Shown here: positions 1 through 5,560 of the stretch, piece by piece | How positions within the stretch are numbered: the stretch's first letter is position 1 | How the letters are laid out: each line of letters opens with the position of its first letter | DNA from: a virus | Taxonomy: Duplodnaviria > Heunggongvirae > Uroviricota > Caudoviricetes | DNA: 5,560 nt | IMG/VR virus record: IMGVR_UViG_2703718872_000024 | Reading direction: 5' to 3' (one strand) | Program-made: the position numbers and the translations under genes | The notes under the pieces: generated by a model | Databases searched by the model: none | Seen by the model: only the letters and a program-made list of their open reading frames with translations | What the model was told of the DNA's origin: nothing

Positions 1-3000
1 GGTACAGGCCCGCCTTGCCCGTGGCAACGCGCCGACGGCGGAGGAGCTTGTACGTTCACAGATGGCTGAAGGTGATGCCGGTCCGACAGCACAGGAGTTA
101 ACTGAGCGTCCGCGTCTGCCCGCCCCCGGCGATATTCATCCCGGACAGGGATATCCGTTACCGGGAGAAGTGGCGCGTACGCCGGATGAAAATCAGGCCG
201 GACGTGGTGGTCGTTTTACCACAACCGGTGAGGTGAAGGGCCAGAGTTTCCAGAAAGGACGTGCGCAGGCACCGGAAAATGCCGCTGGTCGCCAGGGGGA
301 AATTCTGGAGGGCGAACCGGTTCGTCGTGGTCTGCCGTCACCGGATGAGCAGAACGCCACAGCACCAGTGCGTGAAGGACTTCCTGCACCTGAAAGTCAG
401 CGTGGGGTTGATATGCCACAGCCTGAATCACTCCCTCGTATGGTTCGTGACTCCCTTCCGGAACTGGCACAGCAGGCAGAAGCACGCAGACAGACCGGGG
501 ATCGCCAGACCATAACCGATGTTCCGGATACTGAGGTGCCGGTAGATAAACCGAGCACTCACCAGCAGGCGCGTGGTGCGAAAATTGAAGACTTTGGCGA
601 GGAGATTAAGGGCGCGGCAAAACACCGTTATGCGCAGCTTGCTGAAGCTATGGGTAAAACGCTGGAGGATGGGGAGTACGCGACACAACCACTGAGCAAA
701 CTGTTTCCAAAGCCGGATTATGCTCGTCTGGAAAAAGAAGGTGTGGATAGTGACACGCTGGCAATGATGGCGTTGTATCGCAGTGAAATTCCCACCAGAA
801 CAAGCCGTAACATGCAGAAATGGATCAGCATTGTTAAAAGCGGTCGCGAAGCTACTGCCGGTATGCTGGAGGGGAAAATTCCGGCAGCGAAACTGGCTGA
901 TATGATGGACAGTAAGCCGGGGTTACGGAGCATGTCGGATACCTGGAAACTGCTCCGTACGCTTTCTGCATTGCAGATTGATAAAGCATCCGGCTATCGT
1001 GTCAGGTCCGGTGTTTATTCGTTTGTCGGGGGAAAACGTTACGATCCGCCGCAAATGATGTATTCGCTTCGTGATAGCAAGGGGCGCGACCTCTTTTTCT
1101 CGGAAAGCCGGGATGAGTTACTGAAAAAGGCGAAAGCATATTTCGATGAACAAGGCTCCAGAGAAAGGGAAACGCCAGCAACCTCTGCTGATGACAGAAT
1201 AACCTTTGACGTGTACCGGCATAAGGCCAGTGGCGACATTTTTATCGGTTATGGCAAAAACAGGCAGAAACTGAAGGGCGGTTTTGAGTCTGCCCGTGAT
1301 GCACATGATTATGTGCGCACACATCGTGATGAGCTGGTTAATCAGGTGAAGGCGCTGCGTGAAGTCTCGCGTGAGGAGCAGCGTAACGCCACCAACCGCG
1401 ATCGTACCGGACCAGAACGCCGCAAGGGGGATGTTTCGCCGGAGCAGTTCAGTGATGCGTTTGGTTTTCGTGGTGTGCAGTTTGGTAATTATGTGGAAAG
1501 TCCGCGTCGTCAGGCTGATTTGAACCGGGCTTATGACTCGCTGCATGACCTGGCTGACGTGCTGAACGTGCCGACAAAAGCGCTTTCTCTGAACGGTCGT
1601 CTTGGGCTTGCTTTTGGTGCCCGTGGTAAGGGTAAGGCGGCGGCACACTATGAGCCGGGTGAGGTGGCAATCAACCTGACAAAAGGTAACGGACCGGGGG
1701 CGCTGGCCCACGAATGGTTCCATTCACTGGATAATTATTTTGGTCGTTATGATGTTTCCACTGACGGGAAGATCACGTCAGGTGGCGACTATATGACGGA
1801 AGCACAGCGTGCCGGGCGCGTATTTAAAGACGGCAGGTATGTTGATGCGGAATATCCGGTACGTCAGGAGGTTTACGACGCGTTTAAAGGCGTGATGAAA
1901 GCCATTAACAGCAGTGACATGTTGCGTCGTTCTGAACGCCTGGATGGCGTTCGTTCAAAACCGTACTGGTCAACGGATGTTGAAATGGCGGCGCGAGCCT
2001 TTGAGCGTTATGTTCAGGATAAAGCGCGTATGGCTGGCGTGGAGAATGATTATCTGGTCAATATCCGTAAGGCGGATGACCATGGACAGCCGGACACCTA
2101 CGCTTATCCGACGAATGCAGAACTGGATGGCGGTATTCGTGAGGCATTCGATCACTTGTTCCGAACACTGAAAACCCGTGAGACGGACAAGGGAGTTGCG
2201 TTTTATTCCCGTAAGGGCGTGACCCGCACACCTGAAGGCAATCTGATTTCGGATGTTAACCGCAGTGCGGAAGCCAAAGGCAGTCCGGTCTCGCAGGTTG
2301 AAGCTGTTGCCCGTGGCGTGATGAGCGGCATTAAGGACAGTGACCTGAAGGTCCGTGTGGTGAAGTCACAGAAAGAGGCTGAAGCGCTGGCGGGTGAATC
2401 GTTCGACGGTTACGGCAGGGTGCACGCATTCTATCGTCCGGATAAACGAGAAATTGTCCTGGTGGCGGATAACATCCCTGACGGGCGGACCGTACGCGAG
2501 AAGTTGCGTCACGAGATTATCCACCATGCCATGGAGCATGTTGTCACGCCAGCGGAATATCAGACGATTATCAAAACCGTGCTGAAAACCCGCGACAGTG
2601 ATAACGCCACCATCCGTGAAGCATGGCGTAAGGTTGATGCGTCCTATGGTAAGGAATCTCCGGAAGTACAGGCGGGTGAATTTCTGGCACATATGGCGGA
2701 GAAACAGCCGAATAAATTCGTGGCGGCATGGGAGCGTGTTGTTGCTCTGGTCAAAGGGGTACTGCGTCGTACGGGGTTACTGAAGCCGACGGAACTGAAC
2801 GATATCAGACTTGTTCGCGAGACCATCCGTACGTTAGGCCAGCGTGTGCGGGAAGGTTACACGCCGCGTGAGGATGGCGTGGGCGCATCGTCTCAGTACT
2901 CCCGTAGTGGTAAGCCTGATCCGTTCAAAGTGCCGGAAGGTGAGGGTGAACGTTATCGTGATGACCTTGCCAGAATGATGAAGTCGTTACGTTCTGGTGC

Positions 3001-5560
3001 AATGACTGCAAACATTGGGCGTACGCCGCCGGTATTGCGCCACCTTGGCGCACCGGATTTGCCGCTGGTTATCTCCCGCGACACTGTACGGAAGGCAACC
3101 AATGGCGTGAAACATGTGGTGCCAATGGATGTTATCGAGAGACTCCCGGAACTGATGCATGATCCGGATGCAATTTACCGTTCCGCGACAGAAAGAAATG
3201 CAGTTGTGATGCTGCTTGATGCCGTGGATAAAAATGGCGATCCGGTGGTGTCGGCAGTGCACATGAAGGCGACAGGTAAACGTCTGGAAATTAACAAAGT
3301 GGCTTCTGTATATGGTACGGAAAACGGGAAAAAGCTGAAAAGCATGGAAATGGCTGGATTAACGCTTTACCGGAAGGAAAAATTAAGCCGCGATAACCCT
3401 CAGTACAGTGGGCTCCAATTGCCCAAAGAGGAGCGTTCTTATCGCGGCTCTGTAGATAAAATACTCTATCCTGAAGATATTCGCAAGGGGCCGTATTACT
3501 CCCGTACCAGCAGTCTGACACCGGAAGAGACAATTATATCGCGTTTTGTGCGCCAGATGCAGGATAAATTCCGGGTGCTGAAAGCTGTTCAGGAGAATAT
3601 CCGTAAAACTGGCGGAAAAATAGACGATAGTAACAACGCTTATATGGCGGAAGAACTCTTCCACGGGAAGGCGGAAAACGACCTGAACGTGATGAAGGAG
3701 CGCTACGTTCAGCCACTGGCTAAATTACTGGCGGACTACAAAATTGCGCAGGCCGATCTGGATGAGTACCTCTACGCCCGTCACGCGCCGGAACGTAACG
3801 CACATATCGCGAAAATCAACCCGAAAATGCCGGACGGCGGTTCGGGGATGACCAACGCGGAAGCGGCGGAAATCATGCAGCGTGTGCGTAACAGTGGCAA
3901 ACAGGCACAGTATGACCGTCTGGCTGGGATTGTTGACGATATGCTGGCCCGTCGCCGTGAGCTTATCCGTGAGGCCGGACTGGAAGAGAGCGGAGTGGTG
4001 GATGCCTGGCAGAACGCCTACCGTTACTACGTTCCCCTGAAAGGTCAGGATGTTGACGGTATGGTGTCACTGCCCCGTACAGGTAAGGGCTTCACCATCG
4101 GCGGACGTGAAAGCAGGCAGGCCATGGGGCGTGCATCCCGTGCACAGTCTCCGTCCACTCAGGCGATACAGGACCTGAGCGAATCGCTGATCCGCCATCG
4201 CAAAAACGAAGTGGGTAACGCCTTCCTGAAACTGGTGCAGGATAATCCTGACAAGGATTACTGGCAGGTCTTCACTGATGACAGACCTGATACCATGCGT
4301 GCGATTGCAGAGCGTGTTGATCCGGAAACCGGTGAAACCCGTCGCGAAGTTGTCGAACGCCCTGTACCGATGGCAATGATGGCAGACCGGTACTTCACCA
4401 CCAAAAAGAACGGCAAAACGTACTACATCAAACTCCATGATCCGCGCCTGATGCGTGCGATGAAGAGTATGGGACCGGAAACCAGCAATGCCTTTGTTCG
4501 TACGCTGGGGAAAGTTAACCGCTTCCTGGCAACGGTGAACACGTCGTATAACCCGGAATTCCTGGTCAGTAACTTCATCCGTGACGTGCAGACGGCGGTG
4601 ATGAACCTGAAGGCGGAGCAGGGAAGGAGCGACGGTAAACTGAAAGGGCTGGATAACTTATCCGCCCTGGCTGTAGCCAAAGACAGCCGTTCTGCCATGT
4701 CAGCCGTATACGCCAGTCTGCGTGGTAAAACCCTCACGGGAAAAGGTGCACAGTGGCAGAAGGTGTGGAAAGAGTTTGTTGAGGACGGAGGGAAAACCGG
4801 CTGGTTTAACATGGGTGACCTTGAAGGCCAGCAGAAGGAAATGGATCGCCTTGTCTCACTGGCGAAGGGGGGATGGAAAGGCCAGAGTATCGGTGCATGG
4901 AATTCGTTCCTTAACCTTGTCGAGGATGCCAACGGTGCGGTTGAAAACGCTCTGCGTCTTTCTGCCTATAAACATGCCCGTGATGCCGGTTTGTCACGCC
5001 AGCAGGCGGCGTCTCTTGCCAAAAATATGACGGTGAACTTTAACCGTCGTGGTGAGCAGGGGGCGCTGATGAATTCGCTGTACATGTTCGCCAACGCCAG
5101 CATTCAGGGAACGGCAAATCTGGTGAGAACGCTCGGACATCTTAATGGAGAGGGACCTTTACTGGAGCGCCTTCGCTGGAAGAATCTGAATGTTCCGCAG
5201 AAAATCGCGCTTGCCGCTGTGGGAGCGGGTTATCTGCTTGGCTCGCTTAACCGCAGCGTGGCGGGTGAGGATGATGACGGGGTTAACTGGTATGACAAGG
5301 TGCCGTCTCATGTGAAAGAGCGTAACCTCGTCATTATGAAATCGGTGTTCGGGGGCAAGGCCGGAGAGTACTGGAGTATTCCTCTGCCTTACGGGTACAA
5401 CGTTTTCTTCCTGCTTGGTCACACAGCCGAAGGGGTGGCAGCGGGCGACCTGACCGCTTCACGTGCTGCCGGTAATGTTGTTGGTGGTGTGCTTGGGGCA
5501 TTCAGTCCTGTGGGCAGTGAAACGTCGGAAACACTGTCCGGGGCATTGCTGAAAAATGCA
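1..5560 (+). CDS. Internal fragment (5' and 3' truncated by the window) of a giant multidomain protein of more than 1,853 aa; hypothetically a phage/conjugative-element 'polyvalent' protein with zincin-like HExxH modules. Codon phase: first complete codon at nt 2-4, last at nt 5558-5560.
   Basis: Manual translation of frame 2 gives 1,853 consecutive sense codons and no TAA/TAG/TGA. The chance of this in random sequence is about (61/64)^1853, roughly 1e-39. Codon choice is strongly biased toward CTG/CCG/CGT/GCG/AAA/GAA. All other frames and the minus strand are broken into short ORFs. No start or stop codon for this gene lies in the window. Confidence 0.9.
20..560 (+). other. Low-complexity, probably disordered N-terminal region of the encoded protein (Pro/Glu/Gly/Arg/Gln-rich)
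   Basis: The translation reads ...GDAGPTAQELTERPRLPAPGDIHPGQGYPLPGEVARTPDENQAGRGGRFTTTGEVKGQSFQKGRAQAPENAAGRQGEILEGEPVRRGLPSPDEQNATAPVREGLPAPESQRGVDMPQPESLPRMVRDSLPELAQQAEARRQTGDRQTITDVPDTEVPVDKPSTHQQARG... It has few hydrophobic residues and recurring LPxP(D/E) motifs. Confidence 0.55.
317..466 (+). repeat. Degenerate tandem peptide repeat (about 16 aa per unit) within the low-complexity region; repeated at protein level, diverged at DNA level
   Basis: Unit 1 at nt 317-364 encodes PVRRGLPSPDEQNATA. Unit 2 at nt 365-412 encodes PVREGLPAPESQRGVD. A looser third unit at nt 413-466 encodes MPQPESLPRMVRDSLPEL. A related motif YPLPGEVARTPDENQ lies upstream at nt 152-196. The two main units use different codons (for example ccggttcgtcgtggtctgccg versus ccagtgcgtgaaggacttcct). 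Confidence 0.5.
1440..1760 (+). other. Candidate zincin-like metallopeptidase module (HExxH motif HEWFH at nt 1709-1723)
   Basis: The translation reads ...SPEQFSDAFGFRGVQFGNYVESPRRQADLNRAYDSLHDLADVLNVPTKALSLNGRLGLAFGARGKGKAAAHYEPGEVAINLTKGNGPGALAHEWFHSLDNYFGRYD... The H-E-W-F-H codons are cac gaa tgg ttc cat at nt 1709-1723. The Gly-rich FGFRGVQFGNY segment lies at nt 1460-1492. The call rests on the motif only; the fold is not verified. Confidence 0.45.
2402..2560 (+). other. Second candidate HExxH metallopeptidase-like module (HEIIHHAMEH at nt 2510-2539)
   Basis: The translation reads ...FDGYGRVHAFYRPDKREIVLVADNIPDGRTVREKLRHEIIHHAMEHVVTPAEYQTIIKTV... The HExxH residues are encoded at nt 2510-2524, followed by H at 2525-2527 and E-H at 2534-2539 as possible extra ligands. 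The call rests on the motif only. Confidence 0.4.
5201..5560 (+). other. Gly/Ala-rich, partly hydrophobic segment of the encoded protein (possible membrane-interacting or flexible region)
   Basis: KIALAAVGAGYLLGSL is encoded at nt 5201-5248. Further on come ...YWSIPLPYGYNVFFLLGHTAEGVAAGDLTASRAAGNVVGGVLGAFSPVGSETSETLSGALLKNA. The hydrophobic runs are about 15 residues, short for a canonical transmembrane helix. Confidence 0.3.

Follow-up and report, generated by a model that had tools for sequence, protein, structure and literature searches.

A CLCA_X-type zincin-like domain in the giant polyvalent protein of short-tailed Shiga toxin phages

A Giant Late Gene with Several Recognisable Domains

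The stretch of DNA analysed here, 5,560 nucleotides (nt) of the Caudoviricetes record IMGVR_UViG_2703718872_000024 (the window), lies within one giant gene of a Shiga toxin (Stx) prophage, and our subject is the HExxH motif, HEWFH, encoded in it. Frame 2 of the plus strand runs without a stop through all 5,560 nt (2-5560; 1,853 codons) and is the sole long frame; it represents the internal part, amino acids (aa) 702-2554, of a 2,780-aa open reading frame (ORF), RefSeq WP_106913417.1. The chromosome of Escherichia coli 2012EL-2448 matches the window at 100% identity, and there the complete coding sequence (L001:12899-21241) is the final late gene of a 933W/Sp5-type short-tailed Stx prophage and adjoins the chromosomal ymdF/rut genes (ymdF/rutG), which mark the prophage end. 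Shiga toxin genes are spread by short-tailed Stx phages, and the giant gene is the largest in these phages, making up about 14% of the genome, and is essential. Across 186 records of Stx-converting phages, identity to the window is 90-97%. PHROG 616 matches the giant protein over its full length, while its RefSeq annotation reads merely 'LPD38 domain-containing protein'.

Four Pfam domains are found in the window, all on the plus strand and given here, as throughout, in residues of the window translation: LPD5 (343-486, nt 1028-1459; PF18799, E 1.7e-43), LPD1 (647-726, nt 1940-2179; PF18796, E 4e-23, with a score of 81.7 bits that passes the gathering threshold of 27 bits), MuF_C (1036-1127, nt 3107-3382; PF18819, E 4.3e-18), and LPD38 (PF18857), which starts at residue 1762 (1762-1841, nt 5285-5560), runs beyond the window end, and covers aa 2463-2668 of the full protein (E 6.7e-48). 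To these we add a CLCA_X-type zincin-like metallopeptidase domain that contains HEWFH (468-726, nt 1403-2179) and a second zincin-like domain (749-991, nt 2246-2974). A length of 2,780 aa, the combination of LPD5, CLCA_X/LPD1, a second zincin, MuF_C, and LPD38, and a place in the late virion operon identify the host as a phage-type polyvalent protein in the sense of Iyer et al. 2017 (PMC5512222), and the LPD1 and LPD5 models that derive from that work both match strongly. The original prediction, made from the letters alone, had placed the motif in a zincin-like domain of such a polyvalent protein, and the presence of the hallmark domains LPD5, LPD1, MuF_C, and LPD38 bears this out. An additional Pfam match within LPD5, to Arm-DNA-bind_4 (E 5e-4, under its cut-off), was dismissed as spurious.

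An Invariant HExxH Motif in a Conserved Domain

The motif is part of ALAHEWFHSLDNYFG (nt 1700-1744, frame 2, plus strand). HEWFH itself occupies nt 1709-1723, and its glutamate codon lies at nt 1712-1714; the motif, this codon, and the other quoted peptides were all located as the original prediction had them. A search with aa 468-730 returned 395 homologues, many of which are 330-460-aa proteins carrying LPD5 and LPD1, and conservation was counted in an alignment of 70 homologues with 33-86% identity to the query. Compared as proteins, the HEWFH domain and its counterparts in 933W and VT2-Sakai (Sp5) share 91.3% identity.

H570, E571, W572, and H574 are retained in 70/70 homologues, and D577 in 69/70. 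The preceding FGxRG, AHYE, and INLTK segments are kept in 67-70 of the 70 sequences at each position, save A540 (64/70) and K561 (63/70); F538, G539, R541, G542, A548, and I557 are invariant, and H549, E551, N558, L559, and T560 each differ in a single homologue (69/70). Within the LPD1 region, Y655, E661, R665, and F667 are invariant (70/70) and E668 is found in 66/70. Conservation extends upstream to FGFRGVQFGN (nt 1460-1489), a Gly/aromatic motif at the N-terminal edge of the domain, where the columns score 61/65 for F487, 64/65 for G491, 66/66 for both F494 and G495, and 60/66 for N496. Conserved columns reach from R468 to F720, which places the domain at about nt 1403-2179, a wider span than the interval of nt 1440-1760 first assigned to it. 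The Gly/Arg-rich segment that had been noticed ahead of the motif is indeed conserved, but it does not form a separate Gly-rich module: glycine accounts for 12% of the interval first assigned, against 8.8% of the ORF, and the Gly/Arg motifs are conserved parts of the loops and strands that make up this domain.

HExxH pentapeptides often arise by chance, about half of all occurrences in proteins lying outside known zincin domains (Lenart et al., PMC3650047), and HEWFH might be one of these, in a region with no enzymatic role. The ORF's own amino-acid composition, however, predicts just 0.037 HExxH motifs in 1,853 residues, where two are observed (HEWFH and HEIIH); the metal-motif residues of HEWFH are kept in 70 divergent homologues; and HEWFH falls on a helix of a structural model with zincin topology (see below). 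The probability of a chance pentapeptide is close to nil, and on the strength of the alignment we regard this origin as refuted and excluded. Conservation of the HExxH residues among homologues had been named beforehand as a test on which the prediction of a real domain could fail, and with 70/70 the prediction stands.

The Domain Belongs with CLCA_X and Absorbs LPD1

The NCBIfam model CLCA_X (NF041907) matches aa 468-723 across profile positions 3-245 of 250 (E 2.7e-45). CLCA_X was introduced by Lenart et al. 2013 in PLoS One (PMC3650047) as a predicted zincin family of phages, prophages, and plasmids, with the consensus HExxHxxxD, many members of more than 1,000 residues, and a relationship to the N-terminal protease domain of CLCA (HHalign E 3e-5). 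HEWFHSLD (nt 1709-1732), in which D577 supplies the final aspartate, fits this consensus. The likeness to CLCA_X also includes the domain length of about 250-260 residues, the occurrence in phages, prophages, and plasmids, and the frequent residence in very long proteins; the present domain differs from founding members such as Maqu_3852, a 260-aa solo protein, in that it forms part of a giant protein, where it is fused to LPD5. The CLCA_X/LPD1 domain is present in 193 phage records, and tblastn with the domain matched 426 plasmid records (89 conjugative, 94 mobilizable), whose genes RefSeq names either 'LPD1 domain-containing protein' or 'CLCA_X family protein'.

ArdC and the polyvalent-protein metallopeptidase family, offered at the outset as examples of where the motif might belong, proved to be the wrong families: membership of the HEWFH domain in ArdC or MPTase-PolyVal was rejected, with no Pfam match even at E<=10, and CLCA_X was found in their place. 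The domain shares the zincin superfold with MPTase-PolyVal and ArdC (R388, PDB 6sna) and, like them, resides in a protein that serves the invasion phase of a mobile element. When the isolated domain or just its HExxH core was scanned against Pfam with E values as high as 10, no peptidase family appeared, and the sole matches were LPD1 and the tail of LPD5. The HExxH-bearing part, residues 487-646 between LPD5 and LPD1, is covered by no Pfam model, and for this reason the database records bear no peptidase name.

Iyer et al. 2017 (PMC5512222) listed LPD1 among domains of elusive function and considered LPD5 possibly enzymatic. Our reading is that Pfam LPD1 corresponds to the C-terminal helical third of the CLCA_X zincin domain, that is, its last ~80 residues including the helix with the conserved glutamate. 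This merger is a point of annotation and adds no new kind of domain; joining LPD1 with the published CLCA_X would give several hundred proteins of phages and plasmids a better annotation. HEWFH is accordingly assigned, as a prediction, to the catalytic helix of a gluzincin-type CLCA_X domain of about 260 residues, in a family known since 2013 and a class of proteins known since 2017. The locus represents no new type of system; it is a so far unannotated case of a described family.

Predicted Fold and Metal Site

An AlphaFold2 model of aa 335-735 (LPD5 plus zincin), computed with the 70-sequence alignment as input, has a mean predicted local distance difference test score (pLDDT) of 88.5 and a predicted template modelling score of 0.81, and pLDDT is high over the junction of LPD5 with the zincin domain. 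Following LPD5, in model numbering, are a helix (166-187), three strands (201-204, 215-217, and 222-225), the HExxH helix (234-251), an insertion of ~70 residues, and a further helix (325-343) that starts at the invariant glutamate E661. The strands form the three-stranded sheet of the core (nt 1613-1684) and are also marked by conservation: FGARG at nt 1613-1627, AHYE at nt 1643-1654, and INLTK at nt 1670-1684. The core fold of an N-terminal helix, a three-stranded sheet, and two helices is thus present, in the order given for the zincin core by Iyer et al. (PMC5512222), and the HExxH residues H570, E571, and H574 lie on an alpha-helix and are conserved across the family, as in gluzincins.

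We predict from this arrangement that H570 and H574 are metal ligands and that E571 is the general base; E661 (nt 1982-1984), in the YWS..EMAARAFE segment of the LPD1 region, is the probable third ligand. The two histidines would hold a Zn2+ ion together with E661, which lies on the core helix that follows; D577 would sit in the second shell or act as an alternative ligand, and a water molecule would be activated by E571. The AHYE and INLTK strands may line the substrate cleft, their conserved residues binding the substrate backbone. In other gluzincins the transition state is stabilised by Tyr and Arg, and the conserved Y655 and R665 could serve in the same way here.

Foldseek comparison of the model with the PDB showed metalloproteases enriched among the top matches, at probabilities of at most 0.5. 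The large majority of the structural neighbours are true endopeptidases, the closest being anthrax lethal factor, PPEP, MtfA, and botulinum neurotoxin (BoNT). Set beside gluzincins of solved structure, namely lethal factor and PPEP (M34), MtfA (M90), BoNT light chain (M27), and thermolysin (M4), the domain shares 8-14% identity and differs by the ~70-residue insertion between its core helices, so that the similarity is one of fold only.

A zincin-like fold could also have been put to another use, as a different metal-dependent hydrolase or oxygenase or as a structural module that binds zinc or protein. The preponderance of endopeptidases among the neighbours speaks against this, as does the invariance of the full peptidase set (H, E, H, and the downstream Glu) together with the conserved Tyr and with Arg on the Glu helix. 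Since the catalytic glutamate is kept in 70/70 homologues, a purely structural role in particular is argued against, and we consider a non-peptidase function unlikely. The original prediction had left catalytic activity undecided on the ground that sequence alone does not settle it, and that caution still holds.

A Second Zincin-Like Domain

A second HExxH motif, HEIIH (nt 2510-2524), lies 267 codons downstream of HEWFH. A first homologue search with its surroundings gave close fragments only, and an exhaustive HMMER search was used, which recovered 398 relatives, mostly proteins of 1,000-6,000 aa. In 138 aligned segments, H837 is kept in 136, and E838, H841, and a downstream glutamate, E893 (nt 2678-2680), are kept in all 138; the AlphaFold core of the domain reaches pLDDT values of 85-97. 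Pfam gave no match to this domain in any of 20 members.

Co-occurrence of domains was scanned with custom-built hidden Markov models (HMMs) in 147 proteins that contain the second domain. Of these, 124 are at least 1,000 aa long, 29 also have CLCA_X, and 96 carry the second domain by itself; in more than 20, this domain occurs two or three times. Wherever both HExxH domains occur (29/29), the order is LPD5, CLCA_X, second zincin. When CLCA_X was compared with the second domain by hhalign, a strand and the HExxH helix could be aligned, with a probability of 3% (E 0.015); because this probability is so low, we claim no relationship between the two. The conserved residues and the predicted core indicate that the second domain is zincin-like, distinct from CLCA_X, and typical of giant polyvalent proteins. 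The giant gene consequently carries two intact, predicted active sites of zincin type, both outside Pfam coverage.

Solo Relatives and the Question of Self-Processing

LPD5 is the constant N-terminal partner of the zincin domain, both in solo proteins of 330-460 aa and in giant proteins. In phage contigs, solo LPD5-CLCA_X genes (~335 aa) are found among runs of small ORFs downstream of a helix-turn-helix gene and divergent from terminase and portal, an early-type position. On plasmids, a 552-aa protein of LPD1/CLCA_X type is encoded by a conjugative (MOBP, MPF_I) plasmid of Acinetobacter baumannii (L007:6215-7873) near genes for DotA/TraY and an M23 metallopeptidase. The domain occurs two or three times on many Acinetobacter plasmids. 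In GCA_000956365.1 (L005:5773-13596), the modules are encoded by separate genes, for LPD5 (734 aa), LPD1 (395 aa), a 544-aa product, LPD38 (362 aa), and a further LPD1 (289 aa); this row is either a natural split version of the giant gene or a giant gene broken by frameshifts.

These relatives bear on the idea of a dedicated self-processing protease, one whose sole substrate would be the 2,780-aa polyprotein, which it would divide into functional units either inside the capsid or once ejected. Self-processing is the general role that Iyer et al. (PMC5512222) proposed for zincin-like domains of polyvalent proteins, and the modules of the giant protein (LPD5, CLCA_X, second zincin, MuF_C/PBECR, and LPD38) are unrelated and may need to be separated. 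Yet the ~335-aa solo proteins have no polyprotein to cut, and their existence means that the domain cannot serve this purpose alone. CLCA_X is moreover found in just 29 of the 147 proteins with the second HExxH domain, 124 of which reach 1,000 aa; the second domain, which recurs in giant proteins and often in two or three copies, is for this reason the better candidate for processing. For phi24B gp47, an orthologue of the giant protein, the sources consulted report no fragment sizes. We think it rather doubtful that CLCA_X is a protease of this dedicated kind.

A Packaged, Essential Protein

ORF80 of Sp5 and gp47 of phi24B are orthologues of the giant protein, and these orthologues are carried in the virion and essential for infectivity. 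According to a preprint on phi24B, mass spectrometry finds gp47 (2,811 aa) in abundance in purified virions, the reconstruction by cryo-electron microscopy does not show it, and the authors propose that it is an encapsidated ejection protein. Deletion of Sp5 ORF80 (2,793 aa) yields normal-looking, DNA-filled heads that give no plaques and no lysogens, and an antibody to the tail fibre fails to bind the deletion particles (PMC5155283). Similarly giant, capsid-packaged, multi-domain proteins are DarB of P1 and the virion RNA polymerase of N4, and for the LPD38 region at the C terminus there is a match to a PHROG with the label DarB-like antirestriction (E 6.9e-25). In contrast to these, our domain scan of the Stx-phage protein revealed no methyltransferase, helicase, or RNA polymerase domain, and unlike DarB the protein is essential.

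What would a metallopeptidase do in such a protein? The phi24B preprint (2026) called MuF_C a metallopeptidase and proposed that it degrades peptidoglycan during ejection. A corresponding role for the HEWFH domain, in which it would degrade peptidoglycan or another envelope component before the ejected protein builds a periplasmic channel, would suit a protein that is both essential and packaged. The preprint's proposal for gp47 was, however, attached to MuF_C, which Iyer et al. (PMC5512222) classify as PBECR, a domain with a predicted RNase fold, and given this classification the credible metallopeptidase sites are the two HExxH domains. No cell-wall hydrolase family was matched in Pfam or NCBIfam, the nearest folds are cytoplasmic or toxin endopeptidases and not wall peptidases of the LAS, M23, or M15 groups, and the solo homologues lie among early genes of cytoplasmic type without a secretion context. 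An envelope-degrading function is, in our estimate, very unlikely. The reclassification of MuF_C and the two HExxH sites together supply concrete residues for mutation.

The phi24B decoration protein gp84 undergoes proteolytic processing after particle release, according to the preprint, and the Sp5 study noted the lack of any phage protease that could be recognised. Both zincin-like sites of the packaged giant protein are candidates for processing of the gp84 type.

A Model for the LPD5-CLCA_X Module

On balance, with slightly better than even confidence, we favour a model in which LPD5-CLCA_X is a gluzincin-type protease module of a virion-delivered polyvalent protein and acts early. The protease would enter the newly infected cell in finished form, along with the DNA, and would cut proteins there; possible targets include host proteins, other phage proteins, and the polyprotein itself. 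Depending on the phage, it might be supplied as an early gene product or, as in the Stx phages, pre-packaged in the capsid. The early-type solo genes and the plasmid relative next to DotA/TraY fit an entry-stage function that needs no polyprotein substrate.

Several points weigh against this model. The authors of the Sp5 study interpret the ORF80 phenotype as a defect in tail assembly and not as a post-entry defect (PMC5155283). Profile searches and structure prediction speak for a zincin, through the CLCA_X match and the topology of the model, but Foldseek found no PDB match at E<=0.001 (best E 0.17), and PDB searches by sequence, with a single sequence and with a 29-sequence profile, gave nothing relevant. 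The NF041907 score of 154.8 bits is under the curated cut-off of 260, which is why RefSeq gives the giant protein no CLCA_X name; judged by profile comparison, homology to CLCA_X is clear and membership in the strict subfamily is less so. The third metal ligand may be D577, otherwise assigned to the second shell, in place of E661. Finally, the literature searched yielded no biochemical data for CLCA_X or LPD1 proteins.

A more specific proposal is that LPD5-CLCA_X is a self-contained early effector protease with a particular target in the invaded cell, made as a solo early protein in some phages and delivered by the capsid in Stx phages. The target might be a host defence or housekeeping protein, or a virion protein such as gp84 of phi24B. 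We put this forward tentatively, as a possibility worth keeping in mind but not one that we would expect to hold. If it were true, it would be the CLCA_X catalytic site that makes the giant gene essential, and LPD1 and LPD5, present on hundreds of plasmids and phages, would together constitute one enzyme with a definable substrate.

Other Features of the Window and Prophage

Upstream of LPD5, at nt 590-640 (plus strand, residues 197-212), the window encodes KIEDFGEEIKGAAKHRY, which resembles an N-terminal motif, DFGxKIxGAxKD, conserved in solo LPD5-CLCA_X proteins. Its position ~145 residues ahead of LPD5 suggests that the conserved module begins before the Pfam boundaries and has received an insertion in the giant protein. 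Nucleotides 1-570 (plus strand) are GC-rich (0.57-0.62) and encode 190 residues rich in Pro, Ala, Gly, Arg, Glu, and Gln; these residues gave no domain match and probably form a disordered linker inside the giant protein. Two antisense ORFs on the minus strand, at nt 1118-1723 and nt 1449-1670, were rejected as genes because the conserved frame is that of the plus strand. Elsewhere in the late region of the prophage (L001:1-21400), upstream of the giant gene, are an IS1A element among tail-fibre genes and genes for Lom, a YadA-like protein, and Hok/Gef, and a Hok/Gef pseudogene lies directly downstream of the giant gene.

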